DNA of 64,000 nucleotides from a bacterium. GTDB taxonomy: Bacteria; Patescibacteriota; Minisyncoccia; Phycocordibacterales; Zambryskibacteraceae. Numbering within the stretch: position 1 is the first letter of the stretch; each line of letters opens with the position of its first letter. The position numbers and the translations under genes were made by a program. The notes below the pieces were generated by a model. It was not told the origin of the DNA. It searched no databases and was given only the letters and a program-made list of their open reading frames with translations. The stretch spans positions 152,896 to 216,895 of the forward strand of contig JAUSGI010000008.1 in the NCBI GenBank assembly GCA_030649135.1, written 5' to 3'. Shown here in pieces: positions 23,789 through 63,622 of this stretch.

Positions 23789-23830
23789 CCAAAGGCGCCA
23801 CGACCTCGGAGGTCGTGGCGCTCTTTTCTT
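23789..23830 (+). terminator. Rho-independent terminator
   Basis: Hairpin gcgccacgacctc/gaggtcgtggcgc followed by tcttttcttt. Confidence 0.6.
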
Positions 23831-27219: not shown

Positions 27220-27240
27220 TGTCAAAGACCGTCTTTGACA
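27220..27240. repeat. REP-like 21-bp palindrome tgtcaaagaccgtctttgaca (copy 1a)
   Basis: Near-perfect palindrome 11 bp upstream of the RAYT-1 start. Confidence 0.8.
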
Positions 27241-27250
27241 TAATAGGTTC

Positions 27251-27898
27251 ATGGGTAATAGAGACTATAAAAAATTTGCCACTGGAACTATCTTTCATAT
27301 ATACAATAGAGGCAATAACCGAGAAAAAATTTTCCATGATGAGCAGGACTATAAAGCGCTAATATTTAGAATTGGTCTGGCACTAGGATTCGAAGAAAAA
27401 GAACTGTCACATCAATTATGTCACCAACCATATTCAAGAATCAGGATTACAGGCACACATAAAGGAAAATTCAAGCTACACGCTTTTTGTCTTATGCCAA
27501 ATCATTTTCACTTACTTATCGAACAGTGTGAAGATGTGCCTATATCGAAAATTATCTCGAAAATATGTGCAAGTTATGCTAAATATGTAAATAAAAAATA
27601 CAAAAGAGTCGGGCATGTATTTCAGGATAAATTTAAAGCAGTACTTATGGAATCAAATGAACAACTTATGTGGATTTGCACATATATACACATGAATGCA
27701 GTGAAGGACAGTATGGTCAAACATCCAGATGAATATGTATGGAGTAGCTACAATGACTATACAACTGACAGAAATCTGCCAATCATAAATACTGACTTTT
27801 TGATCTCACTATTTGGTGATAAAAATAGTTTCAAAAAAGAGACCCTCCGCCCTTACTCAGATAGCCTGTCAAAGACCGTCTTTGACATTAAGAGTTGA
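27251..27898 (+). CDS. REP-associated tyrosine transposase (RAYT) / IS200-like Y1 HUH transposase, paralog 1
   Basis: YxxxRGN N-terminal motif (FHIYNRGNNREKIF), HUH motif CLMPNHFHLLIE and catalytic Tyr region CTYIHMNAV. AT-rich gene flanked by REP palindromes. Confidence 0.75.
   Translation: MGNRDYKKFATGTIFHIYNRGNNREKIFHDEQDYKALIFRIGLALGFEEKELSHQLCHQPYSRIRITGTHKGKFKLHAFCLMPNHFHLLIEQCEDVPISKIISKICASYAKYVNKKYKRVGHVFQDKFKAVLMESNEQLMWICTYIHMNAVKDSMVKHPDEYVWSSYNDYTTDRNLPIINTDFLISLFGDKNSFKKETLRPYSDSLSKTVFDIKS
27867..27887. repeat. REP-like palindrome tgtcaaagaccgtctttgaca (copy 1b)
   Basis: Identical to copy 1a. Overlaps the last codons of RAYT-1 (KTVFD). Confidence 0.8.
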
Positions 27899-27918
27899 AA
27901 CATATCGGTCTGGATTAT

Positions 27919-28695
27919 TTATTTCAAAACCACCATCAGGTGATCTGAGAAATCGATATAGCCACCCTTTTGATATTCTTTGATTTTCTTAAGGAACTCT
28001 TCAGCCTCTGTATCATTCGGAAAAGAATCAGTATTATGAATAAATCTATAGAAAATCTTGAGGTCAAAACGGCTATTAGTCGTAAGGATATCTCCAACAA
28101 ACATTCTCATCCTTAATCTCTTAACCTCGACCTTAAACCCGAGTTTCTTATAGAAATCAGCGATGTATTCTGCATAATTAAATTCTGGGTAAACCTGTTG
28201 CAACATTATCTTATAGTGATCGCTATCTTCAGGAAGAGTGAGAATAAGCAATTTGCCATCATTATTTAATAAGTCAGGAAGTTTAGAGAGTTGTGCATTA
28301 TAATCTTTTTCATTGAGACCCCAGTAATAGTTTGTGTGGGATGTAAAGACAATATCGTATTTTTTATCAGTTTTAAAAGTAGCAAGACTCCCTGGAAAAC
28401 ATTCCCCAATGTTATTTTCCAGAGTTAAAAATGCTTTGGCTGATGATAAGGCATTTTGATTAGGTTCAAGTAAGTCACAAATGTAGTCTCCTTCAACACG
28501 GTCAAGAATCTGCTTTGTAGTGTGGCCTTCGCCGCAACCAATATCAAGAACGAGTTTATTGGGGGAATTTTGAGTATTTATCTCTTTTACAATTTCAGCT
28601 ACAATCCCAAACCAATCCTCAGCAAAACTACGAATGTAGATATTTTCGTATACATCTGAAAATTCTTTTTCTCCCCAGAAATGCCACTTTGCCAT
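27919..28695 (-). CDS. Class I SAM-dependent methyltransferase
   Basis: Motif I LVLDIGCGEGHTT. AT-rich. Lies between REP copies 1b and 1c. Confidence 0.7.
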   Translation of the reverse strand: MAKWHFWGEKEFSDVYENIYIRSFAEDWFGIVAEIVKEINTQNSPNKLVLDIGCGEGHTTKQILDRVEGDYICDLLEPNQNALSSAKAFLTLENNIGECFPGSLATFKTDKKYDIVFTSHTNYYWGLNEKDYNAQLSKLPDLLNNDGKLLILTLPEDSDHYKIMLQQVYPEFNYAEYIADFYKKLGFKVEVKRLRMRMFVGDILTTNSRFDLKIFYRFIHNTDSFPNDTEAEEFLKKIKEYQKGGYIDFSDHLMVVLK

Positions 28696-28727
28696 AATAT
28701 TTTTTATTTCAGGATAATGTCAAAGAC

Positions 28728-28748
28728 GGTCTTTGACATACACATACA
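28728..28748. repeat. REP-like palindrome tgtcaaagacggtctttgaca (copy 1c, inverted centre)
   Basis: Same arms with centre g instead of c, so opposite orientation. Confidence 0.8.
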
Positions 28749-35550: not shown

Positions 35551-35575
35551 TTGTCAAACACTGGGTGTTAGACAA
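35551..35575. repeat. REP-like imperfect palindrome ttgtcaaacactgggtgttagacaa (copy 2a)
   Basis: Abuts the RAYT-2 stop codon. Confidence 0.7.
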
Positions 35576-36235
35576 CTATAGGATCTTCAAATAATCTAGC
35601 TCTTCTTCTAGAAGTTTTGCTGGACTTGTCCTAGTAAACTCTTGGTATTTGTCTGGGCCTTTGAATTGACCTAGAACGATTTCTGATAAAAGCAGACTTC
35701 CCCATCGATTTTCTTTTATAAAATCTTGATAGCTTGACCAAGGATATTGGTCTTCTTTCTTAAACCACTTCCCAATCTCTCTCGGGTTTCTATGAATATA
35801 GCTAGACAGATATAAAAGCTGATGATCACCTTCTATATGAACCGCACGATAAGGCCCTTGAAAAACATGTCCAGATTTATCATATCTGGTATTGTAATAT
35901 TTGGCATAAGCATTAAGCACTCTCTGCATATAAGCTGCTATGCCTTCTTCTTCAACTTCTTTGACCAATAAGTGGAAATGGTTTGGCATGATACGGAAAG
36001 AAACAAGCTCAACTGTACGCTTTTTAACAATCTCCTCTGTATTATCTAACACCCGGTGTTTGACGAAATCCTTTACTGACCTACCAACCTGTGGAAAAGT
36101 TACTTCTGATTGGAAGTAAAGAATGAGGAAAAGAAATCTGTTGTAGTCTCCTGTATCATGAAAAATAACTTGTTTGTGTACACCCCTATTACACAAATGA
36201 TAATACTCGTTTGGAGACAACCGTGTTCTTCTCAT
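35576..36235 (-). CDS. REP-associated tyrosine transposase (RAYT)/IS200-like, paralog 2
   Basis: YYHLCNRGVHKQVIF, HUH FRIMPNHFHLLVKE, Tyr motif SYIHRNP. AT-rich. Confidence 0.75.
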   Translation of the reverse strand: MRRTRLSPNEYYHLCNRGVHKQVIFHDTGDYNRFLFLILYFQSEVTFPQVGRSVKDFVKHRVLDNTEEIVKKRTVELVSFRIMPNHFHLLVKEVEEEGIAAYMQRVLNAYAKYYNTRYDKSGHVFQGPYRAVHIEGDHQLLYLSSYIHRNPREIGKWFKKEDQYPWSSYQDFIKENRWGSLLLSEIVLGQFKGPDKYQEFTRTSPAKLLEEELDYLKIL

Positions 36236-36245
36236 ATATTCATTA

Positions 36246-36270
36246 TGTCAAATACCCGGTGTTTGACAAA
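36246..36270. repeat. REP-like imperfect palindrome tgtcaaatacccggtgtttgacaaa (copy 2b)
   Basis: 10 bp upstream of the RAYT-2 start. A degenerate third copy lies inside the gene at 36045-36064. Confidence 0.7.
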
Positions 36271-44936: not shown

Positions 44937-44944
44937 CTAACCAC

Positions 44945-44985
44945 AAAACTCACCCCGATTAATCGGGGTGAGTTTTGTTCGTTTT
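44945..44985 (+). terminator. Rho-independent (bidirectional) terminator
   Basis: 14-bp stem aaaactcaccccga/tcggggtgagtttt with loop ttaa, then gttcgtttt. Confidence 0.6.
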
Positions 44986-52064: not shown

Positions 52065-53891
52065 CTAACCACGGCGAATCATCTTGAGAAAAACGTCTTG
52101 GGAAATATTTACTTTCCCGCGCTCCCGCATCTTCTTCTTGCCCTTCTTTTGTTTCTCCCGGAGCTTCATTTTGCGGGTAATATCACCGCCATACATATGC
52201 TGGGTGACATCCTTCTTCATGCCGCTAAGGGTCCGTGAGGCAATAATGCGACCAAGAGCCTTGGCCTGAATCTTCAGCGTAAACATCTGCCTAGGCAAGG
52301 CAGCGGCCAGTTTATCCACATCCGATTCAGACTCTGTCTCAACTTGTCTGCGGGATATTACTTTGGCAAAGGCCGGCACCACTTCATCGGCTATCAAAAT
52401 ATCCAGACGAGTAACGTCCGCCAGTCTTTCACCGGCTAGCGAGTAAGAGATGGAGCCAAAACCGGATGTCGCGCTTTTAAGCTTATCGAAGAAACCTCTC
52501 ATCAGTTCCCGGAGGGGCATTTCAAAAGAGAGTGAGGCGCGCGCCTCACCGAAATTTTCCGTCTCCCCAAGCTCTGCCTCAAACTCATAAAGAAGCTGAA
52601 CCACCGGACTGATAAATGCGGGCGGCACAATGACCGTAGCTTTCACCCACGGTTCCCACACCGAACTTACGAGATGGTCTTCAGGAAAAAATGATGGGGT
52701 ATAAACTTGCCCCTCACTGCCATTTTTGTATACGATTCTATACGTGATACTCGGCAAAGTGATGACCAGGGGCAGATTAAATTCACGTCTCAATCTTTCG
52801 GTGATAATCTCCAGATGAAGCATGCCGAGAAAACCGGCGCGGAAACCCCTACCAAGCACGCTGGAGGATTCTTCTTCGAAAGAGAATGCCGAGTCGGATA
52901 GACGTAGTCGGGAAAGGGCCTGTTTCAAAGCGGTGAAGTGGTCTTGATTCTCCGGGTAAATAGAAGCCCAAACTACAGGAAAGGGCTTCGCATAGCCAGC
53001 CAAGGCGGGACTACCGTCGGTGCTCGCGGTAATCGTATCGCCAACAGAAGCGATTCCGGGCTCCTTGATGCCTGTGACAATGTAACCTATTTCCCCCGAT
53101 ACCAGTTCCGATACCTTCTTCTCCTCCGGGGTAAACACACCAACTTCTAGAGACTGAAACTCTTTGTCCGCCACTTTGAACCTTAACTTATCACCCGACT
53201 TCACAGACCCGCTAAAAACACGCACAAAGACAATAACCCCTCGGTGATTGGAATACTGGAAATCAAAAACCAGACTTCTGAACCCCCCCGAGGAAAGACC
53301 TAGGGGAATTCCCCTAGGTCTTTCCTCGGGGAATTGCGGAGAGTCGTGACTGGAGCTGGGCGGCGGTACACGTTTAATGATTTCGTCCAAAAGATTTAAT
53401 ACACCTTCCCCTGTTTTACCGGAAACAAGTAAGACCTCGTTACTATCTATGTGTAAAAGTTTGGAAATCTCTTCCTTGACTTCCGCCACCCGCGCCAGAG
53501 GAGAATCAATTTTGGAAATAACGGGAATAATTTTGAGTTGAGCGACCTCGGCCATCCCTAGCGTCGTTAAGGTTTGAGCTTGCACCCCCTGCGTGGCATC
53601 CACCAGAAGTATCGAACCCTCCACGGCACCGAGAGCGCGCGACACTTCGTAAGAAAAATCGATATGGCCGGGAGTATCTATCAAATTTAAAATATACTCC
53701 CCATATTTCATCCGCACCGGTTGCATCTTTATGGTAATTCCCCGCTCACGTTCAAGCTCCATGGAGTCGAGTACTTGCTCGCGCATGTCCCGCTTGGCTA
53801 TCGTGCCGGTCAACTCAAGCATCCTGTCCGCCAAAGTAGATTTGCCGTGGTCAATATGCGCTATGATGCTGAAATTACGAATCTTATCCAT
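52065..53891 (-). CDS. lepA: Elongation factor 4 (LepA)
   Basis: FSIIAHIDHGKSTLADR G-domain. LepA-specific C-terminal domain ...GGDITRKMKLREKQKKGKK. Confidence 0.9.
   Translation of the reverse strand: MDKIRNFSIIAHIDHGKSTLADRMLELTGTIAKRDMREQVLDSMELERERGITIKMQPVRMKYGEYILNLIDTPGHIDFSYEVSRALGAVEGSILLVDATQGVQAQTLTTLGMAEVAQLKIIPVISKIDSPLARVAEVKEEISKLLHIDSNEVLLVSGKTGEGVLNLLDEIIKRVPPPSSSHDSPQFPEERPRGIPLGLSSGGFRSLVFDFQYSNHRGVIVFVRVFSGSVKSGDKLRFKVADKEFQSLEVGVFTPEEKKVSELVSGEIGYIVTGIKEPGIASVGDTITASTDGSPALAGYAKPFPVVWASIYPENQDHFTALKQALSRLRLSDSAFSFEEESSSVLGRGFRAGFLGMLHLEIITERLRREFNLPLVITLPSITYRIVYKNGSEGQVYTPSFFPEDHLVSSVWEPWVKATVIVPPAFISPVVQLLYEFEAELGETENFGEARASLSFEMPLRELMRGFFDKLKSATSGFGSISYSLAGERLADVTRLDILIADEVVPAFAKVISRRQVETESESDVDKLAAALPRQMFTLKIQAKALGRIIASRTLSGMKKDVTQHMYGGDITRKMKLREKQKKGKKKMRERGKVNISQDVFLKMIRRG
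53286..53331. repeat. Perfect 46-bp palindrome inside lepA, in frame (ccccgaggaaagacctaggggaattcccctaggtctttcctcgggg)
   Basis: The sequence is its own reverse complement. Encodes PEERPRGIPLGLSSGG in the lepA frame. Related to the dnaE element. Confidence 0.85.
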
Positions 53892-57923: not shown

Positions 57924-57978
57924 GGAAAATGCCGATAAATTATACTTGTTAATACTTTCATCTTAACATATAATGGAG

Positions 57979-58308
57979 TTGGTGTCGGATAGTTGCCCCA
58001 ATGTAAATTGGGGAGGAAAGTCCGAACATTCATTGTGAGATGTCGCACATGTGCAATCTCGCAAAAGGGTAGCAGGTAACGCCTGTCGTCCCGCCTTGGC
58101 GGGATAGAGGTGCGAACAGAAACGACCCGGTTCAGTCCGGCTGCAACGGCAAAATCCTTACCTGAATGCAAGGCCGTGCCCCGAGAGCAATCAAGGGGAG
58201 TGCCGCTAGAGGCCAATAGCGATATTGGTCCCAGATAAATAACTGTCGATTAGTTGCCTACGCGCAAGCTACGGCGTACTGATACAGAATTCGGCTTATA
58301 GACACCCA
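57979..58308 (+). ncRNA. rnpB: RNase P RNA (bacterial type A)
   Basis: Conserved GGAGGAAAGTCCGAACA (P4 5' strand), AGCAGGTAACGCCTG, ACAGAATTCGGCTTATAG (P4 3' strand). P1 pairing is TTGGTGTC/GACACCCAA. Confidence 0.7.
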
Positions 58309-58340
58309 AAGCGCCTCGACATTACGTCGAGGCGCTTTGT

Positions 58341-58362
58341 GACGAGGAAAGACCTCGTGGCG
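58341..58362. repeat. REP-like hairpin gacgaggaaagacctcgtggcg (copy 3a)
   Basis: 19-nt core CCACGAGGTCTTTCCTCGT (reverse complement) identical to copy 3b. Preceded by a separate 13-bp hairpin (58308-58338) at the rnpB 3' end. Confidence 0.75.
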
Positions 58363-58381
58363 TGGTACTATAAACAACATA

Positions 58382-59044
58382 ATGGGAGCAAGGCAAGGAA
58401 GTTTCGCTGCGGGAGAATACTACCACTTATACAATCGCGGTAATAGTAAACAGAAAATTTTTCACAGCAAACACGATTATGAGCGTTTTTTAAAGTTGCT
58501 ATATATTGCAAACTCTTCAGAAAAATTCCACTTCTCCGACATTCAAAATCCATACGAGATAGAAAGGTCTGCCCGACTGGTATCAATAGGAGCGTATTGC
58601 TTGATGCCAAATCATTTTCATCTACTGATGACGCCTGTGAACGACAAAGAAGCTGGGGTAAGTAAATTTATGAAAAAATTAGGCACTGCTTATGCTATGT
58701 ATTTCAATACAAGGTACGAGAGAGTGGGAAGCCTTTTCGAGGGAAAATTTAGATCAGAACATCTTGACTCAGACCGTTATCTCAAATATATATTTTCTTA
58801 TGTACATCTTAATCCTATAAAGATTATGGATAACAAATGGAGGGAACTTGGTATTAAGGACAAAAACAAAGCCTGGCGATTCCTCAATGGATACAAATAC
58901 TCAAGTTTTTATGATTACCAGGATAAACACAGGGAGGAAGAGAAAATTTTGAACAAAGAAAATTTTCCTGGCTACTTTCCCTCTGCACATAAGTTTAAGG
59001 AAGAAATATTTGATTGGCTAAACTTCAGCAACCGAAAGCAATAA
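58382..59044 (+). CDS. REP-associated tyrosine transposase (RAYT)/IS200-like, paralog 3
   Basis: YYHLYNRGNSKQKIF, HUH CLMPNHFHLLMT, Tyr motif SYVHLNPIK. AT-rich. Confidence 0.75.
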   Translation: MGARQGSFAAGEYYHLYNRGNSKQKIFHSKHDYERFLKLLYIANSSEKFHFSDIQNPYEIERSARLVSIGAYCLMPNHFHLLMTPVNDKEAGVSKFMKKLGTAYAMYFNTRYERVGSLFEGKFRSEHLDSDRYLKYIFSYVHLNPIKIMDNKWRELGIKDKNKAWRFLNGYKYSSFYDYQDKHREEEKILNKENFPGYFPSAHKFKEEIFDWLNFSNRKQ

Positions 59045-59067
59045 CCACGAGGTCTTTCCTCGTGGTT
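59043..59067. repeat. REP-like hairpin aaccacgaggtctttcctcgtggtt (copy 3b)
   Basis: 10-bp stem with a 5-nt loop. Inverted relative to copy 3a. Confidence 0.75.
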
Positions 59068-59074
59068 AGCGTGA

Positions 59075-62000
59075 TTAGGGGGCAGGTTCTAGAATCAGTT
59101 CGGGTTCGGGAGTAGGTTCAGGAGCGGGCTCAAGAACGGACTCAGGAGCTGGTTCGACTTCGGTCATCGTAGTCTCTGTACTTGTCCCTGTAGGCTCAGT
59201 GGACGTTGCTACGGACTCCAGTTCTGGTGCTGATATCGGTTCAAGCGTAGGAGAAGATGTTGAAGTCGTGCCACCTGAACTTGCCTGCCCAGAGCTTGTC
59301 GAGGGGGATGAGCTTGCCGGGACAGGCGAGTTGGCAAGTTCAAGCAGGATAGAAAGCTCGGTCTTCGTGACACAGACGTCTTCGATACAAAGCTCTTTGG
59401 TATAAACAGTCTCCGAGCTGATAGTCTTTGCGAACACAACCTGGAGACCATTACCGGAGTCTGCCAACCACTTGCCTACTCTGGATAAAATGTTGGTGAA
59501 GAAACGTTCGGCAAATGATTGTAAGTCCGGTGTGGTGGTGGCAATGGCAGATACATCGAGTACCGATAATATTTTAGTGTTACTGTCATTGAGATTACCA
59601 AAGTCCGTATTCAATTTTGTGATAGCCTCGGTATGGTCGTTTATGCCGATAGTTAGCAAGGCATTCAATTTGTCTGCTTCATCCTGCGCGATTTGCTGCA
59701 TTTGAGGGTCCAAATTCAAGTTCTCGGTCGCCTGTGTAATCATCTGCTGTACCTGGTCTTCTATTTTCATATTGGCAATACGTTCCACTACCAAGGTTTC
59801 GACTTCTTCCACGGCCAGTGATTTATTGCGGCGAGAAATTAAAACTTTAATTTTGCCTTTGCCCGTAGCGAGTGGCTCGAGAGCAATGCCCACGGTGGAG
59901 TCGCCACCGTCGGCACGCATCGCTAATCCTGGCGTAGAAGACGCCGAGGTCAAAGAGTCGCCAATGTTAATCGAGCCATTTTCTGCCGAGACAAAAGCGT
60001 CAACCTGACCAAGCATGCCGATAATGGCATAATGAGACGCATCCGCTTCGACCGCTTTGATATAGTTACCGATAACTGATGGCTTGGTGGAAACTATACC
60101 CATAACATTATTATCTGCGCCACGCTCACAGCGCTTAATCGCGTTGTTTTCTACGACATCAACGCAGACAACTTCTCCAGATTTTAGGTCAACGCTATTG
60201 GTGTAAAAATATTCGGCATAGTCAGCTGCGGGCGAAGTATATGCCCCATCGGCTTTGGTATTGCCGTATGAGTCGACTTTGAAAATAAGACCGGAAGTGG
60301 TGGTAGAGATGACGAAAACATCTCTTAGAACTACTGTGTTATCTACCAAGGATAATTTCGCATAAGGGCTCGTCGTCCCAATACCGACATTGCCGGTGGT
60401 GCTGGCAATGCGCATGGCTTCAGATTCATTATCACGATAGAAGACAACGGCGCCACCGATAGTGAATGTCCCAATGCCTAAAGTTTCATTAGACTGATCC
60501 CATCTAACTCGGGCACCCAGTCCATCACTTACGTTACCAAAATTAATATCCTGCGTCGTGCCGTCAGGTGTTTGGAAAGTCAACCCGGTACTGACATCGT
60601 CCTCAATCATTACTAAAGCGGGGTCTCCGCCGTTGACAGTACCGGTACCGCCAAATATATGGAGCAACGAGTTTGTTTCCGGCGTTGTCGTCCCAATGCC
60701 GACTCTTCCAGAAGAGTCGATACGCATTCTTTCCGTACTACCACCTGTATGTAAGGTGATAACTCCTGAAGAATGGCGAGCAGCGATAGCAATTCCGCCA
60801 GCTCCACCATCTCCACTAGTAGTGTGTAAACTGGCTCCGTTCGCTCGGTTATAGGTAGTGGCGCCAGAGTCATAGGTTGAACCGTACACCATCATAGCAA
60901 GACCGGTAGATCCAGTATCGTTGATTAAGTTCCAGCCGGTTTGAGCGCTACTTAACGTTGATTCAATTGTGGGCTGAATTTGTGCGGTTGAAAATATATG
61001 CAGAAGTTGACTTGGGGTCGTCGTCCCAATCCCCACATTACCCCCCATAAAAAGCCCCGCAATAGGATTCGTGGCAGTTGACGAAGCGACATACGACACA
61101 ATCCCCCCGCCCGAATAAATCCCCCCCAGTCCCGCACTGATTCCTCCGTACACACTCAAGTTTCCTCCCAGCACGCCATTTCCATCCACATGCAAAACGT
61201 TACTTCGTAGCGCTCCCGCATAGAGCGACGGAGTCTCCGTCCCGTTGATGTTTATTATAGTGAACATATCATCCACCCGACTGGTGATGTAGGCGCGATT
61301 ACCTGAAATGGCAATGCCGTTAATGCCGTCAAACCGAGTAGAATCGGTGTCCGAAGTGACAAAGTATGGTCGTGAGGGGTTGGAAATATCAATGACATTA
61401 AAATAGTCCCCCGTTTCGCCTCCGACATACGCGTAATTACCCGCCACCGCAAGGCCAACGGGTACTCCGACATTGTTTATTTGTCCAAGTTTGGTGGTGT
61501 CGGTAAGTGTCCCGGCGATAGTGGGGGCTTTAGGATTGGAAACATCAATAATAGTGAAGGTCGAAGTGGTGGTTGCTACGGTATAGGCGTACCGCCCCGA
61601 GACAACGATATTTTTGGCATTATTTAGATTCGTGGTATCTATCAGAGAACCCACAATGACCGGTGCGTCAGTCCGAGAGATGTCAATGACGGCAAGCGCG
61701 TTTGAGTATGTTCCAATCGCATAGGCATATTTACCCTGCACCGCTATGCCTTGGGCAAAATCGAGGAGCGAGGCACTCGAAACAAAGCCAGATACCACAG
61801 GGGCAGTAGGGTCGGATACGTTAACAATAGTAACCATATCGTCACTTCGGTTTGCAACGTATACATATTGTCCCGAAACCGCAACCTGCATGGGTGTGTC
61901 TAACCGAGTAGCGGAAGACACCACTCCCACTATCTTTGGAACCGTTGGGTTAGAAATATCAATAACCGTCAGACTATCTGCAGTTACCGAACTGACATAC

Positions 62001-63622
62001 GCATAATTGCCCGCCACGGCAAGACCGTTCGCACCATCCATATTCACCGCGTCTGCTACCGACCCCACAATCTGCGGAGTGGAAGAGGAGATATCTATGA
62101 CCGCAAGCGAGTCATTGGTTATGTCCGTAACGTAGGCATAGTTTCCTTGTACGGCAATACCAAAGCGCATATCACCAAGAGTAGTAGCGTTGGTGACGAA
62201 GCCCACCACGCTAGGCGAGGTCGAGGCGCGGTGGAAGATGTTTCCGCCCTCTACGGTAAGTTTAGCGATAGGCGACGTGGTGCCGATGCCAATGTTGCCA
62301 CCGTCAGCCACCACGAATGGATTTAAGGCTCTGTCCCCATTCACATAGAGAGTCGCATAGTTGTTATCGTTATCATAAGTAAGTGCCAGTCCTTTATTGC
62401 TTGAAGCTGCGCTACCAACAATTATAGAAGTATCACCGGATATTCTTCCTTCTCCAAATATCGCCTGGGTTGCGCTATTCGCCGCGACAGAGAGTAGTGC
62501 GGCAGGCGAAGTCGTCCCAATCCCGACGTTGCCGGTTTGGTCAATGATAAATGGCGAGCTATCAGGTGAGGCGATGTCTTCCACGATAAATGCAGGCGCC
62601 CCCCCTGTTCCCGTTTGAGTAATGGATAGCTTACCCCACGGAGTGGTGGTGCCGATGCCGACAGTGCCGGTACTATCAAATCTCATACGTTCTGCATTGT
62701 TTACAAAAATTGCCATATCACTTGCGTTTTCGCTTGCAACTGTTGGGCCGTACGTCAAAATTCCATGGAGCAAGTCATCAGAAGGGAAACCGAAGTATAG
62801 ATTGGCTCGTGCATTGTCCGACGCAGCAATAGTGATGCCTGAGTTGTTTGCTCCCTCAAACAACGCTTCAGACGCATCGACATTCACGGTGGACATGATT
62901 GCGGAACTTGAGACATGAAGGTTGGCAAGGGGGCTCGTCGTCCCGATGCCGACAAAGCCATCTTCATCGATTCGTACTCTTTCAGACAATGTAGCATTGT
63001 TCATTGTGCTAAAGGTCAACCTCCCGTAGGCGCGATTAGTTTTATCAGAAGACCCAGTGATTCTTGCAAGGTCTCTATCAATGTTTGATTCATTGAAGTT
63101 TACATAAGCGATATCTTGATTCGCCGCACTTAGCGGTTTGCTAAGCTGGAGGTTCCCGCCGCTAGCAATCTCAAGCTTTTCTCCTGGCGTCGTCGTCCCG
63201 ATGCCAACATTTCTGCTTGAATCAACAATCAGACCTGTACCTCCTACTGTCAGAAGTGAGGAGTAGAGATTGGTAGAACTGGCAGTAGTGGAGAAAAGAT
63301 TGGTGGTGGTGGCGTTGGTCGAAGTGGAGTAAGTGGCGAAAGTAGAAGAGGCAATTAAACCTAGAGGTGAGCCTTTGAGCCAGAGACCGGTTGATGTCGC
63401 AACTACGTTTTGAGTACCGTAAGTAGTGGGAGTCCAGGCGAAGGTGTTGTCGTCCGCTTCGCAACCGAAGACTCCACCGGCCCAGGTGAGGACGTTGTTC
63501 GATTGGCAAGTGGCAAGACCTGCGCCATTAAAGAGAGCGGTGTAGAGATTGGTGGAAGAAGCAGTAGTACTGAAAAGATTGGTGGAGGTGGCATTCTGGA
63601 AAGTAGAAGAGGATGTTACCAA
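59075..63622 (-). CDS. Giant secreted/surface protein (1515 aa) with tail-fibre-like GIGTT(S/T)P repeats, LVIVD-type beta-propeller repeats and a Pro/Glu/Thr-rich C-terminal tail
   Basis: More than 10 copies of N(V/I)GIGTTxP...KL. (N)YAYV..D..TVIDIS repeats in the middle. Low-complexity C-terminus PAPEPTPEPE. The N-terminal region is repeated upstream. Confidence 0.6.
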   Translation of the reverse strand: MVTSSSTFQNATSTNLFSTTASSTNLYTALFNGAGLATCQSNNVLTWAGGVFGCEADDNTFAWTPTTYGTQNVVATSTGLWLKGSPLGLIASSTFATYSTSTNATTTNLFSTTASSTNLYSSLLTVGGTGLIVDSSRNVGIGTTTPGEKLEIASGGNLQLSKPLSAANQDIAYVNFNESNIDRDLARITGSSDKTNRAYGRLTFSTMNNATLSERVRIDEDGFVGIGTTSPLANLHVSSSAIMSTVNVDASEALFEGANNSGITIAASDNARANLYFGFPSDDLLHGILTYGPTVASENASDMAIFVNNAERMRFDSTGTVGIGTTTPWGKLSITQTGTGGAPAFIVEDIASPDSSPFIIDQTGNVGIGTTSPAALLSVAANSATQAIFGEGRISGDTSIIVGSAASSNKGLALTYDNDNNYATLYVNGDRALNPFVVADGGNIGIGTTSPIAKLTVEGGNIFHRASTSPSVVGFVTNATTLGDMRFGIAVQGNYAYVTDITNDSLAVIDISSSTPQIVGSVADAVNMDGANGLAVAGNYAYVSSVTADSLTVIDISNPTVPKIVGVVSSATRLDTPMQVAVSGQYVYVANRSDDMVTIVNVSDPTAPVVSGFVSSASLLDFAQGIAVQGKYAYAIGTYSNALAVIDISRTDAPVIVGSLIDTTNLNNAKNIVVSGRYAYTVATTTSTFTIIDVSNPKAPTIAGTLTDTTKLGQINNVGVPVGLAVAGNYAYVGGETGDYFNVIDISNPSRPYFVTSDTDSTRFDGINGIAISGNRAYITSRVDDMFTIININGTETPSLYAGALRSNVLHVDGNGVLGGNLSVYGGISAGLGGIYSGGGIVSYVASSTATNPIAGLFMGGNVGIGTTTPSQLLHIFSTAQIQPTIESTLSSAQTGWNLINDTGSTGLAMMVYGSTYDSGATTYNRANGASLHTTSGDGGAGGIAIAARHSSGVITLHTGGSTERMRIDSSGRVGIGTTTPETNSLLHIFGGTGTVNGGDPALVMIEDDVSTGLTFQTPDGTTQDINFGNVSDGLGARVRWDQSNETLGIGTFTIGGAVVFYRDNESEAMRIASTTGNVGIGTTSPYAKLSLVDNTVVLRDVFVISTTTSGLIFKVDSYGNTKADGAYTSPAADYAEYFYTNSVDLKSGEVVCVDVVENNAIKRCERGADNNVMGIVSTKPSVIGNYIKAVEADASHYAIIGMLGQVDAFVSAENGSINIGDSLTSASSTPGLAMRADGGDSTVGIALEPLATGKGKIKVLISRRNKSLAVEEVETLVVERIANMKIEDQVQQMITQATENLNLDPQMQQIAQDEADKLNALLTIGINDHTEAITKLNTDFGNLNDSNTKILSVLDVSAIATTTPDLQSFAERFFTNILSRVGKWLADSGNGLQVVFAKTISSETVYTKELCIEDVCVTKTELSILLELANSPVPASSSPSTSSGQASSGGTTSTSSPTLEPISAPELESVATSTEPTGTSTETTMTEVEPAPESVLEPAPEPTPEPELILEPAP

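Follow-up and report, generated by a model that had tools for sequence, protein, structure and literature searches.

The RAYT3 locus

The stretch of DNA analysed here, called the window throughout, is a 64,000-nucleotide segment of a Patescibacteriota genome (GenBank assembly GCA_030649135.1, contig JAUSGI010000008.1, positions 152,896 to 216,895 of the forward strand; family Zambryskibacteraceae). It contains an open reading frame (ORF) for a protein related to the repetitive extragenic palindrome (REP)-associated tyrosine transposases (RAYTs), set between two copies of one short hairpin. As a first-pass annotation of the sequence had indicated, this is the third RAYT gene in the window, after two paralogues at 27251-27898 and 35576-36235 that share its Pfam family, Y1_Tnp. 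It is called RAYT3 here. The cassette and its neighbours, in window coordinates, are as follows.

57981-58310, + strand: left neighbour rnpB, the class A RNA of RNase P in a reduced form; match to Rfam RF00010 at E 1.2e-25 (84 bits)
58307-58339, + strand: rnpB 3' hairpin with a 14-bp stem, CAAAGCGCCTCGAC / GTCGAGGCGCTTTG, and loop ATTAC; from the catalogue of perfect hairpins
58342-58360, - strand: upstream cognate hairpin ACGAGG-AAAGA-CCTCGT(GG), of the AGG-N5-CCT type; exact 19-mer match
58369-58374, + strand: putative -10 box TATAAA, 7 nt 5' of the ATG; box conserved in homologue loci
58382-59044, + strand: RAYT3, an intact 220-aa Y1/HUH transposase-like ORF; Pfam PF01797
59042-59068, + strand: downstream cognate hairpin TAACCACGAGG-TCTTT-CCTCGTGGTTA with an 11-bp stem; 19-mer match and hairpin catalogue
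59075-63622, - strand: giant gene, a 1515-aa LVIVD-repeat ORF whose stop faces the downstream hairpin

Exact matches to the 19-mer CCACGAGGTCTTTCCTCGT lie on either side of the RAYT3 ORF, at 58342-58360 (-) and at 59045-59063 (+), so the identical, inverted cores that had been claimed for this gene are present as described. They lie within the upstream element gacgaggaaagacctcgtggcg (58341-58362) and the downstream element aaccacgaggtctttcctcgtggtt (59043-59067). The two hairpins had been assigned a GC stem of 8-10 bp with an AAAGA/TCTTT loop. The loop stands and the stem lengths do not: the upstream hairpin has a perfect stem of 6 bp (DNA fold -5.9 kcal/mol, z -2.9), and the downstream hairpin one of 11 bp (-12.7 kcal/mol, z -6.9). 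The upstream hairpin is centred 31 nt 5' of the ATG, in agreement with the modal position in homologue loci, and from the position of the -10 box the RAYT3 mRNA is apparently leaderless. The downstream hairpin opens with the RAYT3 stop codon TAA, and 6 nt separate its end from the stop of the giant gene, which it therefore abuts as annotated. A terminator-like score was obtained for it solely on the minus strand (11 pairs, tail TTGCTTTCGG), at one site compared with 1.4 expected in shuffles, and it may serve the convergent giant gene as a terminator too. A terminator role for the upstream hairpin was rejected by a terminator consensus scan.

The RAYT3 gene was described earlier as AT-rich, and its guanine-plus-cytosine (G+C) content of 36.7%, compared with a window mean of 47.2%, bears this out. 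The G+C minima of the window (34-37%) coincide with the three RAYT genes. On the left, rnpB covers the full length of the RF00010 model with several model regions deleted. Its score of 84 is below the gathering score of 100, so the gene is invisible to a gathering-threshold scan, was recovered with an E-value threshold and would be missed by default annotation. The separate hairpin expected at its 3' end, ahead of the upstream RAYT3 hairpin, was found at 58307-58339, with a stem of 14 rather than 13 bp.

One 4.4-kb Logan contig (L001) is a duplicate of the RAYT3 region. A hairpin with a 13-bp stem at 23795-23821, GCGCCACGACCTCGGAGGTCGTGGCGC, has CGCCACGA in common with the reverse complement of 58353-58362, beside the upstream RAYT3 hairpin; this overlap may reflect chance or a terminator.

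Family, motifs, and fold of RAYT3

RAYT3 matches Pfam family PF01797 (Y1_Tnp) with 31.1 bits (cut-off 23). Its HUH motif is NHFH (residues 77-80), the catalytic tyrosine is Y140, followed by VHLNP, and YSSF occupies residues 173-176. The NHFH and Y-x-x-x-N-P motifs are invariant across 26 aligned homologues. The tyrosine motif, YVHLNP in RAYT3 and Y[IV]HLNP in the homologues, is the RAYT-type Y-x-x-x-N-P and not the Y-x-x-x-Q of IS200. The sole NCBIfam match is the REP_Tyr_transpos equivalog NF047646, at 40 bits and below the cut-off of 80; no IS200 family was matched in that search. Searches of the PDB by sequence gave no transposase match with the single sequence and only ISDra2, at E 0.07, with a profile. 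These searches were uninformative, so a fold search was needed. An AlphaFold model built from the alignment (predicted local distance difference test score, pLDDT, 85.9) has as its top Foldseek match 4er8_A, the structure of E. coli RAYT in complex with a REP hairpin (E 2e-5), followed by 2xm3, 2vju, and 2a6m (ISDra2 and IS608 TnpA; E <1e-3), all including 4er8_A with probability 1.00. No helix-turn-helix (HTH)-like C-terminal domain was detected in RAYT3 with Pfam.

The signature published for RAYT subclass 2.1 comprises NH[YF]H, FQ, Y[IV]HLNP, and an SS tail, with a median length of 238 aa (PMC6006769, Table 1). Its equivalents in other schemes are RAYT group 1 and the TIRYTs, named for terminal inverted repeats (TIRs), of Di Nocera et al. 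2013 (PMC3733652). The RAYT3 motif set (NHFH, LFEGKF, YVHLNP, YSSF; 220 aa) fits the signature, and RAYT1 and RAYT2 of the window have FQ. RAYT3 may thus be assigned to subclass 2.1, or RAYT group 1, by motif signature and not by phylogeny.

Hairpins and RAYT proteins in homologous loci

More than 7900 homologues of RAYT3 were found (best identity 74%), and those with a taxon name belong to Parcubacteria/Patescibacteria lineages. The loci compared, designated by L numbers, were 80 metagenome loci and a few genome loci. Hairpins were counted in 75 loci under a strict criterion (AGG-N5-CCT with at least 6 perfect pairs), which was met by a hairpin upstream in 49, downstream in 53, and on both sides in 44. 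By inspection, locus-specific hairpins are present on both sides, 5' of the start and at the stop codon, in ~70 of 78 loci. Their usual positions are ~35 nt 5' of the ATG and at the stop codon, and hairpin density in these two flank zones is 6.3/kb compared with 0.09/kb in the other 306 kb, a 69-fold enrichment. Because a formal covariation test on hairpins selected in this way is partly circular, only pairs outside the selection criterion were counted. Stem pairs 4, 5, and 6 are Watson-Crick in 89%, 74%, and 61% of cases, compared with 26-33% in shuffles, and all four pair types occur.

Upstream and downstream hairpins of the same locus are identical at 21.7 of 23 nt on average, compared with 11.8 of 23 between loci, and hairpin identity climbs with protein identity, reaching 18.6/23 nt at 70-80% protein identity. 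The hairpin and the RAYT protein co-diverge. In three loci with 53-55% protein identity (L022, L024, L039), CCCCTAGG/AAAGA/CCTAGGGG is found on both sides. A 70% identical RAYT in another gene context (L002) has the hairpin CCACGAGG/TCTTT/CCTCGTGG before its start and at its 3' end, with the pair flipped relative to the gene in comparison with the window. Inverted orientation, as seen in the window pair, is not a conserved property of these pairs: it occurs in 22 loci, direct orientation in 19, and three are tied. Inversion was accordingly rejected as a defining feature. No conserved tetranucleotide was found at the outer positions of 109 homologue hairpins, and the GGGGWSAS TIR motif is absent from the window hairpins.

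A T-A-x-A-A-T box is conserved at -12 to -7 from the ATG across 81 homologue loci, often with TG at -15/-14 (TG-n-TATAAT), and no Shine-Dalgarno sequence was found in these loci. On these two grounds, the genes of the clade appear to be leaderless, with the upstream hairpin (centre at about -35) directly 5' of the -10 box. At least eight homologues (L054, L059, L063, L069, L071, L072, L076, L077) have a third, in-frame hairpin copy inside the RAYT ORF at +161 to +170. Inverted hairpin dimers flank RAYT homologues in at least 11 loci, one of which (L052) shows the same hybrid-arm design as the dnaE and lepA elements described below.

In-frame palindromes in dnaE and lepA

With up to three mismatches allowed, CCACGAGGTCTTTCCTCGT has four further matches in the window, and these are the arms of palindromes in dnaE (8220-8259) and lepA (53288-53329). 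The complete elements are as follows.

8217-8262, + strand: dnaE palindromic dimer TCCCCTAGGAAAGACCTCGGGG TA CCCCGAGGTCTTTCCTAGGGGA, with 23-bp perfect arms
53286-53331, - strand: lepA palindromic dimer CCCCGAGGAAAGACCTAGGGG AATT CCCCTAGGTCTTTCCTCGGGG, encoding FPEERPRGIPLGLSSGG; hairpin catalogue and alignment

Six matches in all compare with 0.01 expected from 100 shuffles, and all six occurrences of the 11-mer AGGAAAGACCT in the 64 kb, its complement included, fall in the RAYT3 hairpins and these two palindromes. The first-pass annotation had matched the dnaE and lepA half-sites to the RAYT3 hairpin, and the shared core confirms this. It had also named a likeness no better than chance as the outcome to look for against the match, and the shuffles speak against chance. 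Both elements are 46-nt perfect palindromes (23 bp per arm; DNA folds of -27.5 kcal/mol for dnaE and -27.0 kcal/mol for lepA), and each consists of two inverted 21-nt units. Taken singly, every unit is an AGG-N5-CCT hairpin with imperfect pairing, one arm being of the CCCCTAGG type and the other of the CCCCGAGG type. The strict search used for the homologue loci overlooks these half-sites, as each half has one internal mismatch. The dimers agree with the RAYT3 hairpin at 16/19 positions and differ at 3/19.

The palindromes are true in-frame insertions. Compared with solved LepA structures, LepA gains ~16-18 residues, FPEERPRGIPLGLSSGG, between its G domain and domain II; DnaE has 18 residues more than Taq Pol III alpha. 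The insert in dnaE is specific to its lineage: it is missing from the closest DnaE homologues (83% identity), and the loop is variable in other lineages.

The lepA dimer is common to the window and four further loci (L121-L124), none of which has a RAYT gene beside it. In the window, L121, and L122 the palindrome is identical at 44-45 of 46 nt (96-98%), compared with 61-76% identity in the flanking 300 nt and ~75% over the whole gene. In L123 (lepA at 2160-3998), both loops have changed in a compensatory manner (AAAGA to CAAGA, TCTTT to TCTTG), so that a perfect 42-nt palindrome is kept and two residues are altered. The new loops are the common RAYT-hairpin loop CAAGA/TCTTG. This conservation and the compensatory change indicate that the element is maintained as a palindrome, which could be due to selection, to repair of one arm from the other, or to re-templating. 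The dimer in lepA is old; it predates the divergence of several species and did not arise recently through RAYT3.

Across Patescibacteria, the loop that follows the PPP motif of aligned LepA proteins is a hot spot for insertions. Several LepAs of 74-83% identity have the same FPEERPRG.PLGLSSG peptide, and many others have (H/N)QGQTL..SQGLTF (e.g., HQGQTL..SQGLTF) at the insert site, which on back-translation reads as a putative dimer of CAAGGTCAAACCTTG-type hairpins. LepAs of ~590 aa are without an insert; aligned lengths range from 589 to 659 aa, and some of this variation is located at the insert site. The window lepA also has 21 extra nt (SSSHDSP) directly before the palindrome compared with L121 and L122 (region 53286-53352).

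Dimers of this kind are tied to the RAYT clade by four independent lines of evidence: the arm types at RAYT flanks, the dimers that flank RAYT genes, the internal copies, and copies in two further housekeeping genes. Arm types CCCCTAGG and CCCCGAGG each match RAYT-flanking hairpins in other genomes. An in-frame hairpin in ligA (L085; 3650-5749, - strand) is identical to the flanks of a RAYT gene 1.7 kb away, encodes the peptide MSRFNLDI, and is placed just before the KxDG motif of the NAD-dependent DNA ligase. A gene for an RseP-like M50 protease (L100; 3683-4801, - strand) contains an in-frame hairpin dimer. Membership of the dnaE and lepA palindromes in the RAYT3 hairpin family is supported by these data; their mobilisation by RAYT3 is a step that we infer by analogy.

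Copy number in the window is low: there are two flank copies and two dimers, or four sites in 64 kb. A scan of GTDB with CKAGGAAAGACCTMGKGG returned 37 stretches, compared with ~139 chance matches estimated under uniform base composition. Most of these are in unrelated phyla and were taken as chance, and the representatives scanned included no high-copy genome and no dimer.

Paralogous cassettes and module order

The three RAYT proteins of the window are 30-34% identical to one another, and each gene has its own distinct hairpin on both sides. The features of the other two cassettes are as follows.

27220-28739, + strand: RAYT1 cassette, with RAYT1, an ORF for an S-adenosylmethionine (SAM)-dependent methyltransferase, and three hairpin copies
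27251-27898, + strand: RAYT1 ORF, Y1 transposase paralogue
27220-27240, 27867-27887, and 28717-28739: three copies of the RAYT1 hairpin TGTCAAAGAC(C/G)GTCTTTGACA
27919-28695, - strand: class-I SAM methyltransferase ORF within the RAYT1 cassette; methyltransferase domains found
35553-36267, - strand: RAYT2 cassette, with RAYT2 and hairpins of the type GTCAAACAC-N3-GTGTTTGAC
35576-36235, - strand: RAYT2 ORF, Y1 transposase paralogue
35553-35573, 36247-36267, and, in frame within the ORF, 36046-36064: RAYT2 hairpins

RAYT1 and the methyltransferase gene form a 1.5-kb low-G+C island (~34%) bounded by inverted hairpin copies, with gyrA on one side and a gene for a solute-binding protein on the other. 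The island resembles a cassette that is delimited by hairpins and carries a passenger gene. The internal hairpin of RAYT2 parallels the internal copies at +161 to +170 in homologue loci, and in both paralogues the hairpin arm TTTGAC runs straight into an ATAAT box. The window has 28 perfect hairpins with a stem of at least 8 bp. It also contains a 36-nt perfect palindrome, ACAAAACTCACCCCGATTAATCGGGGTGAGTTTTGT, at 44943-44978, of a sequence family that differs from the RAYT hairpins.

Neighbouring genes differ among most homologue loci, and small groups keep synteny. L022, L024, and L039 share neighbours, and in the window, L008 (57% protein identity), and L086 (47%), the RAYT gene is close to the same TPR-domain gene, with the TPR-MurJ synteny retained in L008 and L086. 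The order of modules (H, hairpin) was compared between L008 and the window.

L008: TPR(-), H, H, RAYT(+), H, rnpB(+), terminator, H
Window: TPR(-), rnpB(+), terminator, H, RAYT3(+), H
Regions compared at the rnpB junction: window 57924-58340; L121 5343-5987; L122 1-215; L008 6200-7440

The last hairpin of L008 is CCACGAGGAAAGACCTCGTGG, and the junction of rnpB terminator and AAAGA hairpin is common to L008 and the window. L121 and L122 are syntenic with the window for TPR-MurJ-LepA, have no RAYT there, and carry rnpB reversed: it is divergent from TPR-MurJ-LepA in the window and co-directional with it in L121 and L122. These patterns fit rearrangement at hairpin boundaries, which they suggest and do not prove.

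Interpretation of the RAYT3 cassette

We consider it probable that 58342-59068 is a unit akin to a REPtron or TIRtron, in which a Y1 gene is bracketed by its cognate hairpins, with low-copy hairpins and dimers resembling REPINs (REP doublets forming hairpins) elsewhere. RAYT3 is a Y1/HUH tyrosine transposase gene that is probably single-copy, long-resident, and domesticated. The models for its action are E. coli TnpA-REP, with its cleavage and strand transfer on hairpins (PMC8266576), and IS608 and ISDra2 TnpA. On these models, RAYT3 would bind its hairpin when this is folded in single-stranded DNA, as at the replication fork. It would then cut beside the hairpin via Tyr140 with an HUH-bound metal, and the strand would be rejoined. 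Such cutting and rejoining could copy or replace hairpin monomers and inverted dimers and keep the copies of a locus alike, and occasional frame-preserving insertions in surface loops of essential proteins would survive in gene-dense genomes. Binding at the upstream hairpin would probably repress the promoter of RAYT3 itself. RAYT3 itself need not have produced the dimers: another, related RAYT of this genome may be their cognate enzyme, or they may antedate the hairpin sequence that RAYT3 has now.

Several points weigh against this interpretation. A link to a RAYT-mobilised REP family, proposed in the first-pass annotation, holds as far as the common hairpin family and the conserved flank architecture are concerned, and does not extend to two hallmarks of REPs. 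Among the GTDB representatives, the 18-mer reaches at most its two flank copies in any one genome, which is not a REP-like abundance, and the GT[AG]G foot is absent from the window hairpins, whose flanks read ttgtgACGAGG... and aataaCCACGAGG.... The 40 bits of RAYT3 fall short of the NCBIfam RAYT cut-off of 80. Random pair orientation is unexpected for a strand-specific peel-and-paste mechanism. Recent mobilisation by RAYT3 is not indicated, given the 3/19 difference between dimers and RAYT3 hairpins and the age of the lepA dimer. Cleavage or movement by RAYT3 is predicted from analogy. Symmetric palindromes with covarying arms would be just as likely if a symmetric dimer bound them as double-stranded operators, or if one arm served to repair the other.

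It is unlikely that the cassette is an autonomous IS200-like insertion sequence, in which a ~730-bp unit of hairpin, promoter, ORF, and hairpin moves whole and the hairpins are its left and right ends. Such an element would explain why the hairpins tightly bracket the transcription unit, from ~20 nt 5' of the -10 box to the stop codon, and why the RAYT genes are the lowest-G+C spots of the window. The passenger methyltransferase between the hairpins of the RAYT1 island, the varying neighbours at most homologue loci, the syntenic L121 and L122 without a RAYT beside rnpB, and the different order of RAYT and rnpB in L008 and the window also fit. However, no near-identical copies were found, and the paralogues are 30-34% identical with their own hairpins. 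The tyrosine motif is Y-x-x-x-N-P and not Y-x-x-x-Q, no NCBIfam IS200 family is matched, and a tnpB partner gene is lacking. Half of the loci have inverted ends, in contrast to IS200/IS605 elements, which require their two hairpins on the same strand. The TPR-MurJ synteny at 57% protein identity (L008; also L086) and the shared neighbours of L022, L024, and L039 point to long vertical inheritance.

A purely cis-regulatory role for RAYT3 and its neighbours is also unlikely; here the hairpins would act as a promoter-overlapping operator and as a stabiliser of mRNA or a terminator in both directions, and the palindromes in dnaE and lepA would be unrelated structures kept for other reasons. The same sequence stands at both ends of the gene, yet transcription from a leaderless promoter would include just the 3' copy, and no T-run follows the hairpin on the RAYT strand. 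Regulation also leaves aside the third in-frame copy within many RAYT genes, the identical in-frame copy in ligA 1.7 kb from a RAYT (L085), the dimers that flank RAYT homologues, and the 11-19-nt core shared with the dnaE and lepA dimers far above chance. What it does accommodate is the fixed spacing of the upstream hairpin to the -10 box, the terminator-like form of the downstream hairpin for the giant gene, the low copy number, and the covariation, which a dimer-bound palindromic operator would likewise give. A chance likeness between the RAYT3 hairpin and the dnaE and lepA palindromes, for which one could cite the agreement at just 16/19 positions and the commonness of short GC-rich palindromes (the 28 perfect hairpins of the window), is scarcely credible in view of the shuffles (6 matches vs 0.01), the restriction of AGGAAAGACCT to these sites, the presence of both arm variants beside RAYT homologues elsewhere, and the L123 loops, which follow the common RAYT-hairpin loop.

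Relation to known repeat systems

The repeat system to which the RAYT3 cassette belongs is already known from bacteria; the cassette is a form specific to its lineage and not a new kind of element. One of its closest relatives is the REPtron, a RAYT/TnpA-REP gene flanked by REPs (E. coli yafM type, PDB 4er8; Nunvar 2010; Ton-Hoang 2012). Further references for the comparison were Quentin et al. 2018 (PMC6006769) and Corneloup et al. 2021 (PMC8266576). The RAYT3 cassette resembles it in having a Y1/HUH enzyme with Y-x-x-x-N-P, a gene bracketed by co-evolving cognate hairpins, single-copy and divergent paralogues each with their own hairpin family, inverted dimers elsewhere, and 4er8 as the nearest fold. 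REPs have a GT[AG]G foot and occur in tens to hundreds of copies, whereas the RAYT3 hairpins keep an AGG-N5-CCT top instead and are very few in the 64 kb. Random flank orientation and a sub-cut-off NCBIfam score further set the RAYT3 clade apart, as do the ~70 extra C-terminal residues of RAYT3 and the conserved leaderless promoter beside the hairpin.

With the TIRtron, the unit of the subclass 2.1 TIRYTs, RAYT3 shares the motif signature (NH[YF]H, F[QE], Y[IV]HLNP, SS tail), a length of ~220-240 aa, and low-abundance flanking repeats; 16-mers flanking RAYT group 1 genes have ~12 occurrences per replicon (Bertels et al. 2017, PMC5581495). Some TIRs are self-complementary, also as dimers (PMC3733652), and Quentin et al. 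found no REP-like structures in subclass 2.1 (PMC6006769). Unlike in the TIRtron, short hairpins are the rule in the RAYT3 clade, the GGGGWSAS motif and long TIRs are absent, the repeats are inverted in just about half of the loci, and no HTH-like C-terminal domain is found with Pfam.

The dnaE and lepA dimers are built like REPINs (Bertels and Rainey 2011, PMC3116915), with two inverted imperfect hairpin units forming one long perfect hairpin. They differ from REPINs in that the spacer is 2-4 nt, that there are two copies in 64 kb, and that the units are not identical to the RAYT3 flanks of the same genome (16/19). The lepA dimer further shows cross-species conservation with a compensatory change and is not a member of a large recent population.

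As in-frame inserts of ~16-18 residues in loops of replication and translation proteins, the dimers also recall intragenic REPs (Di Nocera et al. 2013) and the Rickettsia palindromic elements (Ogata et al.). The latter are longer than the dimers and without a known transposase. An insert in dnaE is reported for Rickettsia conorii, and in-frame REPs for replication and repair genes (PMC3733652).

RAYT3 shares with IS200/IS605 elements (IS608, ISDra2) the HUH/Y1 fold, hairpins near the ends of a ~0.7-kb unit, and presumably single-strand DNA chemistry. These elements differ in Y-x-x-x-Q, multicopy occurrence, and tnpB; RAYT3-type hairpins are often on opposite strands, and the window pair is inverted.

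RAYTs flanked by REPs or inverted repeats, repeat dimers, and REPs inside the transposase gene have already been described (PMC3733652, PMC6006769). The RAYT3 clade differs in the AGG-N5-CCT consensus without a GT[AG]G foot, REP-like hairpins in a clade with subclass 2.1 motifs, the leaderless-promoter arrangement, orientation-independent pairs, and a cross-species intragenic palindrome with compensatory change. Nothing relevant on RAYT/REP elements or in-frame palindromes in Patescibacteria, also called the candidate phyla radiation (CPR), was found in the limited literature searched, which is no proof of novelty.

Implications

The function of RAYTs and the copying of their hairpin repeats have been unsettled for more than 10 years. 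This clade is a compact natural data set for the problem, with thousands of homologues, each with two or three locus-specific hairpin copies at fixed positions: beside the promoter, at one spot within the gene, and at the stop codon. The conserved AGG-N5-CCT top and freely covarying stems could make the determinants of specificity readable from protein-hairpin covariation.

A wider claim, which we regard as doubtful, is that Patescibacteria carry a phylum-wide, vertically inherited system of Y1 enzyme and hairpin that writes in-frame palindromes into loops of essential proteins (LepA, DnaE, LigA, the RseP-like protease, and its own gene) and keeps them perfect, beyond selfish spread. If this were true, the inserts would be under DNA- or RNA-level constraint, implying a host function or continual re-templating by the enzyme, and hairpin-bounded modules (RAYT, rnpB, the methyltransferase) might be shuffled like gene cassettes.

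In gene-dense, reduced genomes, such repeats persist mainly as in-frame inserts in essential proteins, and in lepA the coding-region palindrome is more conserved than the surrounding gene. These inserts bear on the annotation and modelling of CPR proteins, for example on the length variation of LepA.

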